A DNA stretch of 26,077 nt from Planctomycetes bacterium RBG_13_46_10 (GCA_001824645.1 MHYD01000065.1:8645-34721); one strand, 5' to 3'. Numbered from the stretch's first letter, positions 9,928 through 18,850 are shown. Numbers and translations: made by a program. Notes: generated by a model not told the origin, from the sequence alone.

Positions 9928-11985
9928 TCAGCCCCATGTATGTGTTCCATTATCAAAATGAAACATAATCTGCTTCTGGCGCCGGACGATTTGTTTCCCA
10001 AAAAAGGGCCGGAGAATGTTTTTCGGATACTGATTTAGCCAGAGATACCAACCATGTGAACCCCAGCCTTTTGAAAAAAACACGGTATAATCGTACGGTA
10101 CTAGTGCCTTGAAATAATCCTCATCGTATGAGTTAATATGCTCCGTGCCCAGCGTTAAGGTTTCCCTATAGGGGGTTATGATAAACAGGTCATGGCACTT
10201 GGTCAGCAAATGGGCTGCTACTCTAATGTCGTCTGATAGATGCTCGAAGATATTGGATGCAATAATAACATCCACCTCCGGGACATCCGCATAGTCACCT
10301 TGGATAAACTGCGCAAAACTGCCGTATCTCTCTGTACACTTCGTAATTGCTACTTCGGATATGTCCATCCCAATCAGCGAAGCATGTGGATATGCAGCTC
10401 GATACACAGGTATGGCGTCACCGAGGCCGCATCCGAAATCCAGGATCGTGCCTGAGAAGTCAGACGCAATCTTTAAGTACTTTATTTGCATTTCTGCGAA
10501 TTGCTTGGTCTGAGCCCGCCCAAGTTTTTCCTCCCAATCTCCCGTTACGAATCTGTTCTCCCAATAATCTTTTGTATTAATGTTCATAATTCCCCTATGT
10601 TTATCAACAGTGCACACGCCGGTGTGTGAAGCTGCCTTAGCCGCAGTCAGAAGATAGTAGGCAAAGCCAAACACCCAGATTGTGTGGAAAACATAACCCA
10701 CCGCCCTAGCGATAGCCAAACCCAGAGAGCCGTTATCAACAAGGAGCAGCGTGCCCAAGATGAATGTGAAAGCCCAGCCGAGATTCATAGCGAATCCGAC
10801 CCACATCTTTCCAGATGCCGCAATAATCTGCCCAACGGGGGTTTGGATGGCGAGCAGTCCGGTCGTCAAGAGAACAACAACCAGAGTCGGCCAGCCGCTC
10901 TTAAAACCCTCGCCGTAGAGATTCATTATGTAAGGACTGGCGATGCTCGCCAATAGAGCAAGTGGTAACACTAATAGCCCGTTCACCTTAATCGCGAGAA
11001 CCATTGTCTTCATCGTCTGGTTTGTCTCTTTTTGGCCAAGGCGTTCCGAGAGAACTGGTAAAACAACCTGCCCCAGTAAACCCGGAAGAAACATGAGCAT
11101 TACATACCATTGATTGGCTGCATTGTATATCCCCATCTCACCATAGCCATCGGGCTGATTTACCAATAATGCGCTGCATATCCAATCAATGGGGCCAACC
11201 ATTGAACCAGCTAACACTGCCGGCAAACTGAATCTCCATAGAACGGGGAGTTCCCGGCTGCAATCCCCAAAGGCGAAAAGGACGTTGTATCGCCTTGCCT
11301 CTTTACGCAGGGCTAAATGGTTGAGCAGCCAGTTGACGCCGAGGTTAATTGCTAATGCCCAAACCGCTCCGGTAAGGCCGCCGAAATATGCCCCGCCTAC
11401 CAGAATGGGAAAAGAGATCAGGCCGACAAAAAGATTTACATGAGCGATGGTTTTGAAGGCCTCAAACCCCGACAATGCGCCGGTCTGCGCCCCGTTGAGG
11501 GCGTTGATGAACAGTATCAAGGCGCCGATTCGCAATACGCCGGTTAGATGCGGGGCGTTGATCGTGTGCACGGCCAGCAAAGGGGCGAAGATAAACAGCC
11601 CCAGAGCCATCAGGCCACCGGTTAACATGGCGACCAGCCAGGATAGGCTGATAATCCGTCCGGCTCGTGCTGGGTCACTGCTGCGGAATTCCGCAACATG
11701 CTTGGTGGCGGTTAAGCCGAGGCCAAACCCGGCAAACACACCGAACATGCCAACTGTGGACTGTATAATTCCCAATTCACCAAAACCTGTCTTGCCCAGC
11801 ATACGGGCAACGAGAACAGAAGCAGCAAACATCAAGCCGCGTGAGATTACGGCCCCGGCCATCGACCAGAACACTCCTTTTGCCAACCTGTATCCTATCT
11901 CAGAAGCTTCCACACGATTTAAGGCAGGATGCAGGAAATCCGGACAGCAGGTATATATCGCCTTCTTGACGCCGATATTTAGCAT
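9928..11985 (-). CDS. wzx: Wzx flippase (aa 1 to about 445) fused in frame to a class I SAM methyltransferase (aa 467-685)
   Basis: Multi-TM N-part with ARMLG..GFGELGIIQST and GEMGIYNAANQW. C-part has ILDFGCGLG, GMDISEVAI and SNIFEHL. An internal ATG at 10587 is preceded by AGGGGA. Confidence 0.85.
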   Translation of the reverse strand: MLNIGVKKAIYTCCPDFLHPALNRVEASEIGYRLAKGVFWSMAGAVISRGLMFAASVLVARMLGKTGFGELGIIQSTVGMFGVFAGFGLGLTATKHVAEFRSSDPARAGRIISLSWLVAMLTGGLMALGLFIFAPLLAVHTINAPHLTGVLRIGALILFINALNGAQTGALSGFEAFKTIAHVNLFVGLISFPILVGGAYFGGLTGAVWALAINLGVNWLLNHLALRKEARRYNVLFAFGDCSRELPVLWRFSLPAVLAGSMVGPIDWICSALLVNQPDGYGEMGIYNAANQWYVMLMFLPGLLGQVVLPVLSERLGQKETNQTMKTMVLAIKVNGLLVLPLALLASIASPYIMNLYGEGFKSGWPTLVVVLLTTGLLAIQTPVGQIIAASGKMWVGFAMNLGWAFTFILGTLLLVDNGSLGLAIARAVGYVFHTIWVFGFAYYLLTAAKAASHTGVCTVDKHRGIMNINTKDYWENRFVTGDWEEKLGRAQTKQFAEMQIKYLKIASDFSGTILDFGCGLGDAIPVYRAAYPHASLIGMDISEVAITKCTERYGSFAQFIQGDYADVPEVDVIIASNIFEHLSDDIRVAAHLLTKCHDLFIITPYRETLTLGTEHINSYDEDYFKALVPYDYTVFFSKGWGSHGWYLWLNQYPKNILRPFFGKQIVRRQKQIMFHFDNGTHTWG

Positions 11986-13109
11986 ATATTATTGTCCGCA
12001 ATAGCCCGGACTATCCTTTCGCAGGCCTTGCCATCGCCGTAAGGATTCACCGCATTGGCCATAGCAATATAAGACTTCTCATCGGTGAGTAATGTCGAAA
12101 CTTCATCAACGATCATTCTTCTGTCAGTCCCAACAAGCTTGACTGTTCCAGCCCCAACCGCCTCCGGTCGCTCTGTGGTATCTCGCATCACCAACACGGG
12201 CTTGCCGAGGCCGGGCGCTTCTTCCTGTACGCCGCCCGAATCCGTTAAGACGATTCGGCTCCGATCCATAAGGGCTACAAACGACATATATGCCAATGGT
12301 TCAATTAGATAGATATTGCTGCGGCCTGATAAAATATCGAATACCGGTTTTCTCACGTTCGGATTTAAATGCACAGGATAAACGAAAGCTGCATTAGAGA
12401 ACCGCCTTGAAAGCTCCGATATAGCTCCACAGATACTCTCAAAACCGGCACCGAAGTTTTCGCGCCGATGGCCGGTGATAAGAACCACAGGCTTATGACT
12501 ATCTCCATTAAGTAGTTCCACCGGCAAGCTCGGTATAGCGGGTGGATTCTTCCGCACCTTTTCAATTGCGATATGCAGCGCATCGATGACGGTGTTTCCG
12601 GTTATGAAAATTCTGTCTTCGGGTATGCCCTCCCTCAAAAGGTTCTCCTTGGCCCGTTGGGTAGGGGCAAATTGCAGGTCCGCAAGATGGCTTGTCATCA
12701 GCCGGTTGATTTCTTCGGGGAATGGAGAGAACTTATTCCACGTCCTCAAGCCCGCCTCCACGTGACCGATAGGAATCCTGTTATAGAAAGCCGCCAGCGC
12801 CGCACAAAATGTTGTTGTAGTATCGCCCTGGACAATTACGATGTCGGGCCTGTGCCTTGCTACGTAGCTGTCTATTGCAATCACAGCCCGAGAAGTAAGC
12901 CCAGCTAATGTCTGGTCGGGCTCCATAAGATCCAGATCAACATCAGGGACAACCTCGAAAACATCCAGAACCTGATCGAGCATCTGACGGTGCTGTCCGG
13001 TGACGCAGACATGCGGCTGAAACTCCGAATGCCTCTTAAATTCCAGGAACAAAGGACACAGCTTGATAGCCTCCGGCCGAGTACCAAAAATTAGAGAGAC
13101 TTTTTTCAT
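11979..13109 (-). CDS. wecB: UDP-N-acetylglucosamine 2-epimerase (non-hydrolysing)
   Basis: Motifs FGTRPEAIK, TGQHRQML, VQGDTTT, HVEAGLRT, PFPEEINR, TGNTVIDAL, HRRENFG, TDSGGVQEEAP, RDTTERPE and NPYGDG. Confidence 0.97.
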   Translation of the reverse strand: MKKVSLIFGTRPEAIKLCPLFLEFKRHSEFQPHVCVTGQHRQMLDQVLDVFEVVPDVDLDLMEPDQTLAGLTSRAVIAIDSYVARHRPDIVIVQGDTTTTFCAALAAFYNRIPIGHVEAGLRTWNKFSPFPEEINRLMTSHLADLQFAPTQRAKENLLREGIPEDRIFITGNTVIDALHIAIEKVRKNPPAIPSLPVELLNGDSHKPVVLITGHRRENFGAGFESICGAISELSRRFSNAAFVYPVHLNPNVRKPVFDILSGRSNIYLIEPLAYMSFVALMDRSRIVLTDSGGVQEEAPGLGKPVLVMRDTTERPEAVGAGTVKLVGTDRRMIVDEVSTLLTDEKSYIAMANAVNPYGDGKACERIVRAIADNNIC

Positions 13110-13116
13110 TGTAGTA

Positions 13117-13151
13117 GCAGCGGTTAGTTTTTAGCGAATAGCTTATAGCGA
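13117..13151 (+). repeat. Heptamer array A1 (gcagcgg ttagttt ttagcga atagctt atagcga)
   Basis: AG core recurs with exact 7-nt period; the array lies 7 nt upstream of the wecB ATG. Confidence 0.85.
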
Positions 13152-13256
13152 AGTCGAGTAGCCAAGATGACGAGTAGGCGAGAATACGAGCATGCGAGAA
13201 AACGGGTAAAAAGAAGAAGACAAGTATACGAGAAGACGAGAAGTCGAGAAGGCGGC
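13152..13256 (+). repeat. Degenerate octamer array with CGAG core
   Basis: CGAG or variants at 13155, 13163, 13171, 13179, 13187, 13195 and 13203, then after a 2-nt phase shift at 13221, 13229, 13237, 13245 and 13253. Confidence 0.85.
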
Positions 13257-13294
13257 TTTTAGCTAATGGCTATGAGCTATGCGCTAATCACTAC
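13253..13294 (-). repeat. Heptamer array A2 (minus strand gtagtga ttagcgc atagctc atagcca ttagcta aaagccg)
   Basis: 7-nt period; inverted relative to A1 (18/21 match); overlaps the antitoxin stop codon. Confidence 0.85.
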
Positions 13295-13496
13295 TTAGTA
13301 GGTAGCCATTCCGCTTTAACTCTTCCATGACATCTGCATGAGGTATAACCGGCTCTTCCCGCCTCTCAGCAACAACTGCCAAATCTTGCAGATCCTCGAT
13401 AAGCTCTTCATACTCCTCAATAGGCAATATGACAGCTTTTTTATTGCCGTTGACGTCTATTACATATTTGGGATTCAATTTCGGTGCGGAACGCAT
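13284..13496 (-). CDS. Small antitoxin-like protein (RelE-partner type), without an adjacent toxin
   Basis: 70 aa; YVID..G.KKAVILPIEEYEELIEDLQDL...ERREEP.I...V..EL is the pattern of small type II antitoxins usually found upstream of RelE/ParE toxins. Confidence 0.7.
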   Translation of the reverse strand: MRSAPKLNPKYVIDVNGNKKAVILPIEEYEELIEDLQDLAVVAERREEPVIPHADVMEELKRNGYLLSSD

Positions 13497-13600
13497 AACA
13501 TCAACCTTAAGTTTTTCAGTTCTTAGTTTTGGCCAATCGATCCGGTATAACTTTTTTACCTATCGGCAAATATGCCCTGATTCCACTCGTACAAGGCTTG

Positions 13601-13629
13601 ATTATAACGCAATTCTTCAAAACCTGCAA
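13601..13629 (-). promoter_or_regulatory. Sigma70-type promoter TTGCAG-N17-TATAAT
   Basis: -35 at 13629-13624, perfect -10 TATAAT at 13606-13601, 17-nt spacer; about 100 nt upstream of the antitoxin ORF. Confidence 0.6.
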
Positions 13630-13695
13630 TTAAATTCCAGCCGACCAATATTCGCCGATTGTTTTCGCTGATTGAGCCTCCAAACTACACACCGT

Positions 13696-13709
13696 ACGCT
13701 AACCGCTGC
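13696..13709 (-). repeat. Two-unit heptamer remnant A6 (gcagcgg ttagcgt)
   Basis: Overlaps the WecA-like stop codon; 13699-13710 is the perfect reverse complement of 13116-13127. Confidence 0.6.
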
Positions 13710-15150
13710 TTATTACTTTGTGCTCATCGATCAGTCTGCCAAACAGCGTTGCTCGGTGGCCGGCGGATTCGTATGAGCCGTTGACCGTGACGGCTATTTC
13801 AAACTCTATTGGCCCGGCCTTATCGTGATTGCGGAGCGGGATAGTCATAGTAACGACAACAGAGAGGTCCGGCTGAGCTTTGGTTGTTCGCCAGACTTCG
13901 GTGCAAACCGTTCCATCTTTGCCTTTGGTCTTTAGAGAGACCCAGGCGAAGTCCATTTGCTGGGCGGCTCTGCAGACCGCGGACCACCACTGGTCATAAG
14001 TGCGAGCGTTACGAAAATGCAGCTGGACATCCTCGAAGCCTCGTGTCTCCTCGTGTTCCTGGTTGCTTATTGCATATTTTCGCTGGAGGCCCTCAATTGT
14101 TTCTTTTAACCGGACCGAGCCGACGAGCTGGAATGCAAGCAGCAGCAACAATAAAATGCAGAAGAAAACAACAAGCGAGCCAATATTACGAGTGACCATC
14201 ATAAACATCCCCAGGCCGGCGGCTATTAGGGTCACTATATATATCGTCACAACGACGAGGCGTTGATTGAGGCCTAAATCGATGAGTTTGTGGTGGAAAT
14301 GCCTGCGGTCGGCGGCGAATACGGACCGGCGCTCGATGAAACGCCGGAGCATTGAAAAGAGTGTATCGAAAATCGGCACCCCCAGTGCCAGCAGCGGCAG
14401 GGCCAGGCCGACCATAACGGGCGATTTACTCGAGCACAGCACGCTGGAAGAGGCAATTGTGAAACCCAGGAATATACTGCCGCAATCACCCATAAAAATC
14501 TTTGCCGGACTGAAGTTGTAAAACAAAAAACCGCTCAAGCTGCCAAGAAGAGCAAGCATCAATACAGCCATAACAACCTGGCCGTTATGAATGGCAAGTA
14601 TGGCAATCACTCCACAGGCGATAGCGGAAATCCCGGCGGCGAGACCGTCGAGACCATCGCTGAGGTTCACGGCGTTGGTGATACCCACAATCCAGAATAT
14701 CGTCAATGGCCAGGAGAACCAGCCGAAGTTTAGCGTAAGCTGCTCGGTGATAGCGACCGATTCTATCCTGACACCAGCGGTACAGACAGCGATAGCAGCA
14801 GCTATCTCGGCGAGAAACTTTATTCTCGCCCGCAGGCCCTTGGTCTTAATGTCGTCGATCAACCCGATAAAAAATATGAAACCGGCAGCTGAAAGCAGAA
14901 CGGTAAGTTCAGGCAGGATATTGCGGAAGGTATCGCCGATAATGTTCGACAAGAACAGCACGGAAATGCTCAGAGGCATCATCGAAAGAAATATCGCCAC
15001 GCCTCCGATATGCGATATAGGTTTCGTGTGAATGTGCCGCGGACCCGGAACGGCGACGATTTTCAGCCGGCGGGCAAGCCAGATAACAACCGGCGTTATC
15101 ACCAGCGCAAGAAAAGCAGAGCCAAGATATACACACAAATAGGTTTTCAT
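13699..15150 (-). CDS. wecA: MraY/WecA-family polyprenyl-phosphate HexNAc-1-phosphate transferase with C-terminal extension
   Basis: Motifs H..PISHIGG, GLIDD, NAVNLSDGLDGLA, NF.PAKIFMGDCGS, PIFDT and DRRHFHH. Confidence 0.9.
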   Translation of the reverse strand: MKTYLCVYLGSAFLALVITPVVIWLARRLKIVAVPGPRHIHTKPISHIGGVAIFLSMMPLSISVLFLSNIIGDTFRNILPELTVLLSAAGFIFFIGLIDDIKTKGLRARIKFLAEIAAAIAVCTAGVRIESVAITEQLTLNFGWFSWPLTIFWIVGITNAVNLSDGLDGLAAGISAIACGVIAILAIHNGQVVMAVLMLALLGSLSGFLFYNFSPAKIFMGDCGSIFLGFTIASSSVLCSSKSPVMVGLALPLLALGVPIFDTLFSMLRRFIERRSVFAADRRHFHHKLIDLGLNQRLVVVTIYIVTLIAAGLGMFMMVTRNIGSLVVFFCILLLLLLAFQLVGSVRLKETIEGLQRKYAISNQEHEETRGFEDVQLHFRNARTYDQWWSAVCRAAQQMDFAWVSLKTKGKDGTVCTEVWRTTKAQPDLSVVVTMTIPLRNHDKAGPIEFEIAVTVNGSYESAGHRATLFGRLIDEHKVISSG

Positions 15151-15152
15151 GA

Positions 15153-15194
15153 TTAGCTATTAGCGGTTAGCGATTAGCGGATAGCGTTGAGCTA
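15153..15194 (+). repeat. Heptamer array A3 (ttagcta ttagcgg ttagcga ttagcgg atagcgt tgagcta)
   Basis: Six phased units fill 42 of the 47 nt between the NusG-paralog stop and the wecA-like start. Confidence 0.92.
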
Positions 15195-15197
15195 AGA

Positions 15198-15746
15198 CTA
15201 TATCGGCTCCAGCAGGTCGGAGTCGATTTCCACTACAGCGCCCTGGCCGAGGATGGTGACTTCAAGGACCATGCGGGCTTTTGCATCTTTTCTTTTGATT
15301 ACCACACCTTCGATTCCCATCATGGGGCCTGAGATGATTCTGCAGCGGCGGCCTATAGGAAGACGGGGATAATTGTCAATTACGGCCTTGCTCAAAAGAG
15401 CCTTCTCTATTCGCAAAAGCTCTTCGATCAGGCTTTCCTGGTCAGCAACTTCTATCGTTCGGGAGACGCGATTCGTTGTCAGGGCGGTATAGCGGTCCTG
15501 CTCTGTGCCGCAGAAAAACACGTATGATTTGAAAAGAGGTGACATAATGTGCCGTTTGCGGCCGCCGGAGAAAATGACCTTTTCACGCATAGGAAGAAAG
15601 TAGCCTATACCGTGGCTTAACATGTCCCATGCAAAGGCCTTTTCGAATCTCGACTTTGTATAAGCCGCCCACCACGTACCGGTAAAATCGGCAAGGGATT
15701 GGACGTCCGGTGTTAAAATAGCCGGATTTTCAGATAACTTAAGCAT
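15198..15746 (-). CDS. NusG paralog (UpxY/RfaH/LoaP-like transcription antiterminator)
   Basis: NGN domain W..AYTKSRFEK...FLP...PLFKSYVF; KOW motif G.RCRIISGPMMGIEG. Confidence 0.92.
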   Translation of the reverse strand: MLKLSENPAILTPDVQSLADFTGTWWAAYTKSRFEKAFAWDMLSHGIGYFLPMREKVIFSGGRKRHIMSPLFKSYVFFCGTEQDRYTALTTNRVSRTIEVADQESLIEELLRIEKALLSKAVIDNYPRLPIGRRCRIISGPMMGIEGVVIKRKDAKARMVLEVTILGQGAVVEIDSDLLEPI

Positions 15747-15749
15747 TTT

Positions 15750-15784
15750 TTAGCCTTTAGCAATTAGCTCTTAGTGATTAGCGG
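15750..15784 (+). repeat. Heptamer array A4 (ttagcct ttagcaa ttagctc ttagtga ttagcgg)
   Basis: Five phased TTAG units; overlaps the last codons of the four-helix-bundle gene and ends 3 nt before the NusG-paralog ATG. Confidence 0.92.
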
Positions 15785-16136
15785 TCTTTCGAACGGTCTT
15801 AATGAAGGTTGTCAGCATTTTCCTGATTTCTACAAGCTCGACTGAGGATTCCTTGTAACTGCTGTCATCAAGGAGACCAATATTATTAGCAAGCAAAATC
15901 AGATAATCAAGTTCGCTTGCCGAACAGGAGGCTATCTCCATGAAACGAGCCAGTTCAGTGTCGGTATTTCTGCCACAACCTTCTGCTATATTTGTTGGAA
16001 CTGAAGCAGCCGCACGACGAATCTGGCTTATTAGGCCGTATGTTTCCTCTCGTGGAAAAGAGTCAGTGACTTTATAAATCTTTATTGCTAAGCAGTGTGC
16101 CTTATGCCAAACTTTTATATCACGAAAGTTTTTTAT
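15771..16136 (-). CDS. Four-helix-bundle protein (TIGR02436 / '23S rRNA IVS protein' / bAvd-like), non-canonical or damaged start
   Basis: Missing from the ORF track. Reads IKNFRDIKVWHKAHCLAIKIYKVTDSFPREETYGLISQIRRAAASVPTNIAEGCGR...ELARFMEIASCSASELDY...KTANH*. In-frame candidate starts are ATA (16136) or CTG (16163). Confidence 0.88.
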   Translation of the reverse strand: MKNFRDIKVWHKAHCLAIKIYKVTDSFPREETYGLISQIRRAAASVPTNIAEGCGRNTDTELARFMEIASCSASELDYLILLANNIGLLDDSSYKESSVELVEIRKMLTTFIKTVRKTANH

Positions 16137-16167
16137 TTCATATTGGTATTGATTAGGATTCAGTAAT

Positions 16168-16195
16168 TAGCTAATGGCTATCAGCTAATCGCTGC
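16168..16195 (-). repeat. Heptamer array A5 (minus strand gcagcga ttagctg atagcca ttagcta)
   Basis: 7-nt period; opposite orientation to A4 and A3; upstream of the four-helix-bundle gene. Confidence 0.88.
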
Positions 16196-16205
16196 CGTTA
16201 TTTCT

Positions 16206-16234
16206 GCGCGCACTCCGTTCCCCTTAGTGCACGC
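16206..16234 (-). other. RNA stem-loop GCGUGCACU-N11-AGUGCGCGC
   Basis: 9-bp stem whose only non-Watson-Crick pair is G-U on the minus (mRNA) strand; no U-tract follows. Confidence 0.45.
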
Positions 16235-16318
16235 GACAAATTTCTCTATTCTCTCAACCTTCTTCCACAAAATCCCAACATCCTTGAGAAGGCCGAGTCA
16301 TATTATCTTTAAGACGCA

Positions 16319-18850
16319 CTAAGGCGTCGTATTTCCTTCGGCTACAGGTTCGGGCAGGACGGAAAGTTGCTCAATGAGTCTCTTCGCCGGCTCGAATTGT
16401 GGACGAAGGCGCAGGCATATCCTTGCCTCATGGATCGCCTCGGGTGCCTTGCCTGTCTCTGCGTAGAGTCTCGCTAATTCAAATCGCCATTGGACCTGGC
16501 CGTAATCCAAATCCAGAGCCTTGTTGTAATATTCCATAGCCGCTTCATTATTTTTATCTCTTCTGTAAACATATGCAAGAGAGGCATATACAGAAGCTGA
16601 AGCATCCGGGCCGGAACATATTTCTTTTAGCAGCTCTACTACCCGGGCTTGTGCCTTCTCAACTATGTCTTTGTGCTCTTCTATATCCGCAAGAGCATTG
16701 GCTACATAGCTTAGCCATCCGGTATTATCTCCTGCAATAGCTACCGCCAGATCGGGTCGTCCCACGCGATTGATGTATACATCAACAACGTTACGAAAAA
16801 ATCTGCCGTCAAGCTCAACAGCCCTGCTTAGCTTTTCAAATGATGCGTCGATTTGTTGTTCTTCTGTATCGAGAAGGCCGGCGGCAAAACAGACTGTAGG
16901 GTCACAAGGTGCGAGCTTAAAGCCTTTTCGGATACGGTCAGCGCCGTTAGGATCATCCTGAATCAACATCTCAAGCTGTCCGACTATGCAATAGCTTGCC
17001 CCATACGTCGGACAGAGTTGCCGTACTTTATGGAAATCATCGACTATACGGTCCACAAATTCCTTTACTGGTTCGGAGATAATAAGCTCGCCGGTATTCG
17101 GATCGGTAGTTCTGCTTATAGACCTCCAGCGGTAGACGTTAAGCCAGTGCCGATACTCAACGTTGTCAGGCTGATAATCGGCGGCTTTAGCCGCATGTGA
17201 AATCAAGTTTATGTATTCTTCGTCGCTGCCCTGCCAGTTTTCCGCCGCCAGGTTCTGTTCGGCAGCGAGAGCTTTATTCCAGTTCGCCTGGGCAAGCCGG
17301 GCCGTATTGGCGCTGAGCAGAATCCAGGCCCAAACTCCTGATACACACACCAATCCGGCAATGCGCAAGCCTCTTGATAATCGCAGTGCAGTTGCAGTTG
17401 TGCTAAATAGATGGCCTTTTTGTCCAGGCAGTGCTAAGCCCAGCATAAGGGCACAAAATACGGCAGAGAGGAATCCGTTGGCCGGCAGGTGCTGACCAAA
17501 GTCGCTTAAGCTGTGGAGTAAAATTGCCAGCAGCCCAAATCCAAGACCATAAGCCGCCGAGCGAATCGGCACGGATGCGGCTTTTACATTGCGAACATAC
17601 GCTATCCATACCAGGATGCCAAAGACAACCAGAGCTAACAGGCCTGCAATGCCCGTCTCCTCGGCAGCCTGGGCATACTCGTTTTCTGCATAAGCAGCGA
17701 GAGCTGCGATCATTGAGCGGTCGAACATTGAAAATACAACGGAGTGCGTACCCAGCCCCGTTCCAAAGAGGGGGAACTTTGCCCAGGCAGTCGAAATGTC
17801 CTTCAAAATCTGCCAACGGCCTCCTTCCGCCTGCTGTAACTCCTGAAGAGTGGCGAGACGATCATAAACAGCGTCGAAACCTATATAGAGTACACAGATA
17901 AATGCCCCAAGTGCCAGCAAGGCGATTATCCAACCCTGGCCTTTTAGAGACTGTCGCCAACTGAGGATCAACACGGTAAAGGCTGCTGCGATAAACATAC
18001 TTACCATACCACCTCGGGTCAGTGACAGGAAAATCGTAGCTGCTCCGAGAATGATCATTGCTGTGAGCAACCATAGAGTTTTTGCCTCAGACGAGCCAAG
18101 GTATTCGATGACAACAGCAGGGGTAACTTGCTTACCTGTGAATATCTCGTGGGCTTTAACTAATATAAGTGCAAGAGCCGCTCCAATTGATAAATTCATA
18201 AACTGGCCATAGTGGCTATGATTGGCAAAAGGACCGGAATTGGCCCGCCCCCTCTCAAGAGGTACGAGCCAGTATATTTTCCCATTGCCGAGCAGGTCCT
18301 GTGCAATCGCCAGTAAAGCGATTGCACCGCCAATAATGGCGATTGCGCCTAAAAGCCGTTTTATCTGGTCCGGTCGGCGGTATACATTTACAACCACGAA
18401 AAAAACTGCTGCTACGGCTAAAACTAATCGCAGATTCTGTTTTGTGGCGTTTGGATAAAAGCTAAGAGTCATCGAGCTGAGAAACTCACTCGAATTGGGC
18501 AAATCACTAAGAAGCTCTTGCTTCGTCGCAGCAGTGTTCGGCGAAATTATGCTTACCAAGCTCGTTGGCAGGTGAATAAGCTGAAATACAGCTACAAGAA
18601 TAAACAGGGCCACCGGTATATAAACCCAGGACCAAATAATGCGCAGATTTTTTTCAAAGACAAGCTTCAACAAAAAGCAAACGGAAATTGCTGCCGCTAT
18701 GACCAATACGATCTCTTCGCTCCAGGCATGCACAGCGCCGAACGCAAGAGGCATAAATGCGAGAAGCGATATCAGCAGCCACTCAATCACATTATCGAAT
18801 CTGCTCATGCTATCTTCCGTAATACTGAGATCGATTCGGCGTTCTTTCAA
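16319..18850 (-). CDS. O-antigen ligase family (Wzy_C) membrane protein with C-terminal TPR region
   Basis: Motifs GPFANHSHYG, LSLTRGG, GRWQILKD...FPLFGTGLG.H and ENEYAQ..EETG; TPR-like end (AMEYYNKALDLD..., LARLYAETGK..EA). Confidence 0.88.
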   Translation of the reverse strand: MKERRIDLSITEDSMSRFDNVIEWLLISLLAFMPLAFGAVHAWSEEIVLVIAAAISVCFLLKLVFEKNLRIIWSWVYIPVALFILVAVFQLIHLPTSLVSIISPNTAATKQELLSDLPNSSEFLSSMTLSFYPNATKQNLRLVLAVAAVFFVVVNVYRRPDQIKRLLGAIAIIGGAIALLAIAQDLLGNGKIYWLVPLERGRANSGPFANHSHYGQFMNLSIGAALALILVKAHEIFTGKQVTPAVVIEYLGSSEAKTLWLLTAMIILGAATIFLSLTRGGMVSMFIAAAFTVLILSWRQSLKGQGWIIALLALGAFICVLYIGFDAVYDRLATLQELQQAEGGRWQILKDISTAWAKFPLFGTGLGTHSVVFSMFDRSMIAALAAYAENEYAQAAEETGIAGLLALVVFGILVWIAYVRNVKAASVPIRSAAYGLGFGLLAILLHSLSDFGQHLPANGFLSAVFCALMLGLALPGQKGHLFSTTATALRLSRGLRIAGLVCVSGVWAWILLSANTARLAQANWNKALAAEQNLAAENWQGSDEEYINLISHAAKAADYQPDNVEYRHWLNVYRWRSISRTTDPNTGELIISEPVKEFVDRIVDDFHKVRQLCPTYGASYCIVGQLEMLIQDDPNGADRIRKGFKLAPCDPTVCFAAGLLDTEEQQIDASFEKLSRAVELDGRFFRNVVDVYINRVGRPDLAVAIAGDNTGWLSYVANALADIEEHKDIVEKAQARVVELLKEICSGPDASASVYASLAYVYRRDKNNEAAMEYYNKALDLDYGQVQWRFELARLYAETGKAPEAIHEARICLRLRPQFEPAKRLIEQLSVLPEPVAEGNTTP

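Follow-up and report, generated by a model that had tools for sequence, protein, structure and literature searches.

What accounts for six short arrays of one seven-nucleotide repeat at the gene boundaries of a single bacterial polysaccharide operon? The question is raised by a stretch of 26,077 nucleotides (nt) from Planctomycetes bacterium RBG_13_46_10 (GCA_001824645.1 MHYD01000065.1:8645-34721), here called the window, in which arrays of a TTAGCnn heptamer (A1 to A6) surround and follow a small gene of the PF05635 four-helix-bundle family. A first-pass annotation of the window had read the arrays as a cis-acting grammar of this operon. Our analysis instead identifies a local cluster of a widespread cassette family and no operon-specific grammar. 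The arrays are probably the arms of three heptamer-hairpin elements, all of one repeat family, which is the cognate repeat of the resident PF05635 gene.

The array observation itself is real and far beyond chance. With arrays called wherever TAGC or GCTA recurs at period 7 in at least three units, the window contains five (13132-13149, 13262-13286, 15154-15185, 15751-15768, and 16170-16187), and a genome-wide scan returned the same five and no others (1,932,364 bases scanned; assembly 68% complete). At periods 4 to 6 and 8 to 12, neither tetramer yields an array of this kind anywhere in the genome. A core-free period-7 caller run on the window likewise gave five arrays, identical to the TAGC/GCTA-based set. 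All five are TTAGC-type, lie at gene boundaries, and fall within 3.1 kb; by our own arithmetic, the chance of five arrays sharing one such stretch is on the order of 1e-10. The initial description of six arrays that share one consensus and occur only at gene boundaries thus stands, with A6 as a two-unit relic.

The order and orientations initially described were also recovered. The genes of the region are all encoded by the minus strand. Read as mRNA, two arrays (A5 and A2) are UUAGC-type and three (A4, A3, and A1) are GCUAA-type, and these three stop 0 to 6 nt short of the start codons (ATG) of the NusG paralog, wecA, and wecB, respectively. The stop codons of wecA, an antitoxin gene, and the four-helix gene fall within array units. 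A promoter had been placed between A6 and the antitoxin gene, but a sigma-70-type promoter and terminator scan of 12900-16500 yielded nothing above shuffles and revealed no promoter in that gap. An Rfam search of the whole window matched no family.

Heptamer arms of PF05635 genes

The genome has five PF05635 genes, every one of them enclosed by inverted heptamer arrays with a core of its own (CAGGAGA, TTAGCnn, TAGGGnn, CTCGATn, and GTTACGn). Genome-wide, about 90 period-7 arrays of other cores are present, compared with 10 to 24 arrays at periods 6, 8, and 9. The two most abundant heptamer families, CTCGATn (14 arrays) and ACAGnAn (21 arrays), match the arms of resident PF05635 genes. The arrangement is therefore not peculiar to the polysaccharide operon, as had been supposed.

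The association extends well beyond this genome. Two sets of loci were analyzed: the 80 closest relatives of the window's four-helix protein (50 to 60% identity, one genome per species) and 88 PF05635 genes outside that set, taken from 40 genomes in the same order. Among 166 loci, period-7 arrays were found in 106 upstream and 116 downstream flanks, while periods 5, 6, 8, and 9 accounted for 3 to 17. In-phase T(T/C)AGC occurred upstream in 30/80 close relatives versus 0/88 others (Fisher 6e-12), and in-phase GCT(A/G)A occurred downstream in 38/80 versus 1/88 (Fisher 3e-14). No locus in either set displayed clean opposite arm pairing, and opposite-type arrays were present in few flanks only. 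Arm type thus tracks protein clade. Consistent with this, protein identity correlates with arm similarity (Spearman 0.48; Mantel 0/500), and arm state changes 18 times on the protein tree, as opposed to 40.5 times (minimum 34) for shuffled labels. Carriers of T(T/C)AGC-type arms span at least 13 phyla. Because arm core and orientation follow the protein clade across phyla, gene and arms behave as one unit and have evidently been inherited or transferred as such.

The position of the arms relative to coding sequence is also regular. The upstream arm ends a median of 30 nt before the start codon, the downstream arm begins at the gene's stop codon in 76/116 loci, and a same-strand open reading frame (ORF) starts no more than 25 nt past the downstream arm in 71/116. 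Extra same-core arrays more than 150 nt from the gene were found in 6/80 relatives (e.g., Planctomycetales, Anaerolineales, and Pseudanabaena genomes); the multi-array layout of the window is therefore unusual, not unique.

Some loci of the order are more elaborate. In a genome from another family, an intergenic region of ∼650 nt (L026:5240-5900; G029:C11) consists almost entirely of successive heptamer arrays with at least five cores, and TTAGC arrays there also flank two fn3-domain genes. At a second locus of that contig (L027:2180-2659; G029:C11), a PF05635 gene has GCTAA-type units upstream and AAGCnnT units downstream, an orientation opposite to that of the window's clade.

These data bear on whether the arrays are neutral simple-sequence repeats generated by replication slippage and unlinked to their neighboring genes. 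Unit number does differ between near-identical strains (see below), and heptamer repeats are over-represented in some bacteria (PMC4692102). However, slippage is contradicted by the clustering of five one-core arrays in 3.1 kb of a 1.9-Mb genome, by the enrichment of period 7 alone, by the occurrence of the arrays as inverted complementary pairs around one gene family, and by a core that has stayed with the protein clade in at least 13 phyla. We rejected this explanation as exceedingly improbable.

The first-pass annotation had also suggested that the arrays serve as binding sites for the four-helix protein or the NusG paralog. The former is backed indirectly, in that arm core and orientation track its clade, while nothing points to the NusG paralog. 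The best argument for a protein that recognizes its own repeat is that a 5-nt core has been kept across phyla at 50 to 60% protein identity, beyond the needs of pairing. Recognition of its own heptamer by the four-helix protein is the most economical guess. A broader version would have the protein recognize its heptamer in RNA or DNA, with the operon arrays as working sites of a widespread clade-specific system that processes or regulates host operons and rRNA and also explains the gene-less heptamer hairpins found across many bacterial genomes; this version we consider rather unlikely.

The three elements of the operon

By position and match, the six arrays evidently resolve into three elements: a cassette (A5, the four-helix gene, and A4), the solo array A3, and a hairpin after wecA (Table 1). 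The cassette, with its arm, gene, and inverted arm, would have entered the operon downstream of a conserved leader box and ahead of the start codon of its NusG-type antiterminator. The second element would be a mostly one-armed array filling the nusG-wecA spacer, and the third a gene-less hairpin with an octamer loop, the left arm of which was presumably split later by an antitoxin insert. Other genes of the window encode glycosyltransferases, methyltransferases, and a flippase.

Table 1. Features of the array region in mRNA order (window coordinates; G008, G010, and G014 are relatives from other genera of the family)
Feature	Position	Strand	Remarks
O-antigen-ligase/TPR protein gene	16319-18850	-	First in mRNA order of the region
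Leader box	16204..16231	-	Imperfect hairpin, 28 nt; matches 26/28 in G008, 21/28 in G010, 19/28 in G014
A5	16160..16193	-	Upstream cassette arm, ∼4 units, UUAGC-type in mRNA
PF05635/TIGR02436 four-helix-bundle gene	15771..16136	-	23S rRNA intervening-sequence protein, Avd-like
A4	15747..15785	-	Downstream cassette arm, 5 units, GCUAA-type; overlaps four-helix stop, ends at NusG-paralog ATG
Specialized NusG paralog gene	15198..15746	-	Best match UpxY family, below its cutoff
A3	15151..15197	-	Occupies the spacer of nusG and wecA; a single UUAGC unit precedes 5-6 GCUAA-type units that reach the wecA ATG
WecA-like glycosyl-1-phosphate transferase gene (Glycos_transf_4)	13699..15150	-	Stop TAG inside A6
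A6	13697..13711	-	∼2 units, apparent outer remnant of left arm of post-wecA hairpin
Orphan RelB/Phd-like antitoxin gene	13284..13496	-	70 residues; stop TAG in first unit of A2
A2	13255..13293	-	Apparent inner part of left arm, UUAGC-type; 21/25 match to reverse complement of A1
Octamer array	13150..13251	-	∼12 units, nnnCUCGn in mRNA; putative hairpin loop
A1	13116..13153	-	Apparent full right arm, GCUAA-type; ends 6 nt before wecB ATG
UDP-GlcNAc 2-epimerase gene (wecB)	11979-13109	-	Last in mRNA order of the region

The four-helix protein is a clear family member, with profile matches to PF05635 (E 2.7e-36) and TIGR02436 (E 2.4e-38) and a match to PDB entry 2GSC (XCC0516; E 4e-18); Avd models score below cutoff (bAvd, E 1.5e-6; DivGenRetAVD, E 1.7e-6). 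At its start codon (16134-16136, minus strand) the window has ATA where three sister contigs have ATG, and no other in-frame ATG, GTG, or TTG was found near the expected start. Translation of this copy may be poor, or the gene may be in decay, as has been reported for Coxiella.

Assignment of the third element follows from its arms. The reverse complement of A1 reads as A6 directly followed by A2, with a 12/12 inverted match between A6 and 13116-13127 (part of A1), so that A6 and A2 would be a single left arm split by the antitoxin insert. This insert of ∼400 nt (about 13297-13698), on which the antitoxin gene rides, interrupts the left arm and is flanked by two TTAGCG units. The A6 site holds a full array in sister strains. 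The original structure was evidently a hairpin immediately after the wecA stop, with the octamer array as its loop, and arms of this kind can evidently be split by further insertions. No toxin-sized frame was found after the antitoxin gene, and public assemblies contained no record of an exactly matching antitoxin protein. On the plus strand the octamers read GAnnnCGA (13150-13251); period-8 arrays are rare, with 10 genome-wide, two of which lie in this interval.

An alternative grouping, with A3 and A4 as one arm split by nusG, was considered and dropped, since the adjacency of nusG and wecA and the leader box are ancestral in relatives.

Variation at the arrays among relatives

Orthologues of the NusG paralog occur in four other genera of the family (55 to 79% identity). 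The leader box (GTGCAC...GTGCGCGCA) is kept directly upstream of this UpxY-like paralog in five genera and was not found before more distant NusG paralogs. It may be the cis element at which the operon-specific antiterminator acts. In relatives the box lies 10 to 25 nt before the start of the paralog (55 nt in one genome, G010), while in the window it is ∼460 nt upstream, pushed there by the cassette. The intervening site is empty in G008 (10 nt from box to ATG) and G014 (11 nt), and no array or gene was seen in G005 (25 nt). In G010, the 55 nt accommodate a gene-less TTAGC-type hairpin of ∼41 nt. Because this hairpin matches the outer A5 and A4 units, the gene together with the inner units would represent an insertion into, or a deletion from, the center of a hairpin. 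The nusG-wecA spacer is occupied by other heptamers in these genera: ACCTAAT-type in G010, GAAAGnT in G014, and a GGCATTA/TAATGCC hairpin in G005.

Near-identical sequences were available for closer comparison. Three public contigs (L063, L064, and L065) encode an identical NusG paralog and show 98.4% identity to the window over 8,041 nt. In these sister contigs A3 is one unit shorter than in the window, and the same 7-nt deletion is present at 15160 (within A3) in X1 and X2, two sequencing runs from sediment. Arrays therefore appear to grow and shrink by whole units. Similarity to the window ends at 13707, inside A6, with none beyond, and directly after wecA, at the site of A6, the sisters carry an intact TTAGC hairpin with a 6-nt loop. 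The end of the block conserved with the sister strains thus evidently lies at one of the arrays. The final two residues of WecA differ, with the window ending ..SSG and the sisters ..SKV (13699-13710 versus L063:8030-8041); in the window, the end of the wecA gene appears to have been replaced by the array and insert, with a repeat unit now providing the stop codon.

Different genes follow in each strain. The interval between wecA and wecB could not be aligned as such, as other genes follow wecA in relatives; the three strains with known post-wecA sequence contain three different gene sets. In L064, a GCUAA-type array directly precedes the ATG of the first variable gene, which encodes a flippase rather than wecB. 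Divergence between L063 and L064 sets in ∼430 nt later, with no TTAGC array at that point.

The sister contigs have additional features downstream of wecA. The post-wecA hairpin is followed by ∼430 nt of noncoding DNA that is common to the sisters (L063/L064/L065:8130-8450) and absent from the window; it holds several copies of a ∼15-nt motif (ATTGTAAAGTCACAT-like). Further repeat arrays, including an ACGGTGn-type hairpin, precede the first variable gene in L063 (8560-8790 and 9476-9880), along with a PF13366 (PDDEXK_3/GxxExxY) gene in two pieces of 74 and 48 residues.

In general, comparison of orthologous loci at the arrays, proposed in the first-pass annotation, revealed presence/absence variation, and the idea that small genes enter and leave at the arrays is upheld: the leader-nusG site is empty in two genera, contains arms only in a third, and contains arms and gene here, while the antitoxin gene lies inside a split arm. 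Taken with the flank statistics, the element evidently sits at stop/start junctions, co-oriented with the next gene, and is gained or lost there.

Are the arrays then recombination sites in their own right, i.e., short homologies or attC-like sites through which modules are exchanged between strains? An identity of 98.4% over 8 kb that stops within A6, three gene sets after wecA in three strains, a GCUAA-type array before the first variable gene in both the window and L064 despite different genes, and an antitoxin insert between two TTAGCG units would all fit such a role. However, breakpoints at the end of the final conserved gene are common in polysaccharide loci that have no dedicated site, L063 and L064 diverge from each other away from any TTAGC array, the other module boundaries in the window lack TTAGC arrays, and the 26 kb encode no integrase or other recombinase. 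We consider this explanation distinctly improbable. More broadly, the gene content of the window and the sister contigs showed no integrase, transposase, recombinase, nuclease, or reverse transcriptase at or around the element.

Predicted arm pairing and comparison with known systems

If the arrays are arms of hairpin elements, transcription within the operon would allow complementary arms to pair into stems of ∼20 to 27 bp. By analogy with the intervening sequences (IVSs) of 23S rRNA, RNase III would then cut the stems, freeing the passenger and giving the downstream gene a short leader; the genome encodes RNase III. Predicted duplexes between UUAGC-type and GCUAA-type arrays range from -27 to -35 kcal/mol (z -4.4 to -7.1 versus shuffles), while pairs of GCUAA-type arrays give z of about 0 to -1.7. 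The A5:A4 duplex scores -27.2 kcal/mol (z -5.9), and the best duplex is A5:A3 (-35 kcal/mol). A5 and A2 are also predicted to pair with each other, because TTAGCTAA is self-complementary. In both the minimum-free-energy and the centroid folds, A5:A4 pairs enclose the four-helix gene and A2:A1 pairs enclose the octamer array of ∼100 nt.

Long RNA stems that loop out passenger genes had been proposed from the outset. The complementary pairs do fold around passengers (A5:A4 and A2:A1); the part that concerns RNA fared less well. Selection on the sense transcript should make sense duplexes more stable than antisense duplexes through G.U pairing, but among arm duplexes from 86 loci the sense duplex was more stable in 42 and the antisense duplex in 43.

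Several points, including this one, weigh against the reading of the arrays as arms of cognate hairpin elements that act in the transcript. Since no G.U transcript signature was found, the arms could just as well act in DNA, as terminal inverted repeats. Folds of the whole regions do not outperform shuffled sequence (z -0.5 and -1.6), and both arm pairing and cleavage in the operon transcript are predictions. The CTCGATn and ACAGnAn families are dispersed over the genome, whereas the TTAGC family occurs at one locus only, and its confinement to one operon is not explained by simple mobility. Among genes in or near the element, none encodes an enzyme able to move it. Finally, the four-helix gene of the window has lost its ATG.

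The same evidence can be read in terms of an operon-level device, in which alternative long-range pairings within the one transcript, or the four-helix protein bound to its own heptamer at each junction, would govern how nusG, wecA, and the first variable gene are processed or translated, or how stable their messages are. Three start codons directly adjoin GCUAA-type arrays, each of which is able to pair with either UUAGC-type array. Within the genome the TTAGC family is found only in this operon, and the same junctions are kept in sister strains; arm core tracks the protein clade with fixed orientation, and 6/80 relatives have extra arrays of the same type near the cassette. However, the orthologous operons of G008 and G014 work without a leader-site array, the nusG-wecA spacer holds unrelated heptamers in other genera, and the arrays persist in this strain although the start codon of the protein is lost. 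The lack of an RNA-specific signal in the G.U test counts against such a device as well, and we view it as possible but unlikely.

On the preferred reading, of hairpin elements cognate to a PF05635 gene, the locus touches three puzzles that have stood apart since the 1990s: the function of PF05635/S23p proteins, the origin of rRNA IVSs, and the excess of heptamer repeats in bacteria. It ties the PF05635 family to heptamer repeats, with a gene-in-heptamer-hairpin design inside an ordinary operon, and suggests that many heptamer repeats annotated as regulatory may be relics of such cassettes. For polysaccharide loci, it places such elements at the boundary between conserved and variable genes and in the leader of the operon's antiterminator.

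Among known systems, REP/REPIN elements have a single-copy RAYT gene flanked by a short palindromic repeat, which is also found in hairpins devoid of a gene. The two dominant heptamer families of the genome may offer a parallel, in that they match the arms of resident PF05635 genes. In contrast to RAYT, the gene here encodes a small four-helix bundle (PF05635 and bAvd matches only) with no Y1 transposase or nuclease domain, and the TTAGC family is not dispersed in this genome (68% complete). Avd, the nucleic-acid-binding accessory protein of diversity-generating retroelements (DGRs), is a distant sequence relative of the four-helix protein and belongs to the same fold family. Unlike a DGR, the locus has neither a reverse transcriptase nor a template/variable repeat pair close by, and the neighbors are all polysaccharide synthesis genes. 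A DGR was therefore rejected, given also that Avd models score below cutoff, as were an integron cassette with attC site (no integrase among the genes of the window or sister contigs) and a transposon (no transposase in or near the element).

Our search found no literature linking PF05635 genes outside rRNA to heptamer arms, although most subscription journals were outside its reach. PF05635 genes wedged into cas operons have been noted with no mention of repeats (PMC3936711). Conversely, heptamer repeats have been described in convergent pairs in Xanthomonas with no link to S23p (PMC4692102) and annotated as putative regulator sites in Geobacter (PMC2700814). The arrays share with the Xanthomonas, Nostoc, and Geobacter repeats (PMC4692102, PMC2700814) tandem 7-nt units with 4 to 5 conserved positions, a mostly intergenic location, frequent convergent pairs on opposite strands, and lengths that vary between relatives. 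Those repeats have been read as G-quadruplex formers or regulator sites, with no connection made to PF05635 genes, whereas the core here is tied to the clade of the resident gene. The arrays belong to this class of intergenic heptamer repeats, which is a descriptive class and not a mechanism.

The nearest described system is the ORF-bearing IVS of 23S rRNA (Coxiella burnetii helix 45; Leptospira; PMC4990558). In Coxiella, an S23p ORF lies in a 28-bp stem with tandem heptamers of strain-variable number, and the stem is cut by RNase III (PMC4990558). Shared features are an S23p/PF05635 gene in the loop of a long stem formed by terminal inverted repeats, tandem heptamers beside the ORF in strain-dependent unit numbers (here a difference of one unit, in A3), and an ORF that decays in some strains. 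One heptamer family of the genome, GACAGAn (C70:15264, C53:35677, and others), matches the Coxiella unit GACAGAT. Unlike an IVS, the element occupies leader and spacer positions in a polysaccharide operon that encodes proteins, with no Rfam match in the window, and is accompanied by gene-less and one-armed arrays of the same core at neighboring junctions. By this analogy, the element appears to work like a 23S rRNA IVS but is none, as it fails the defining rRNA location.

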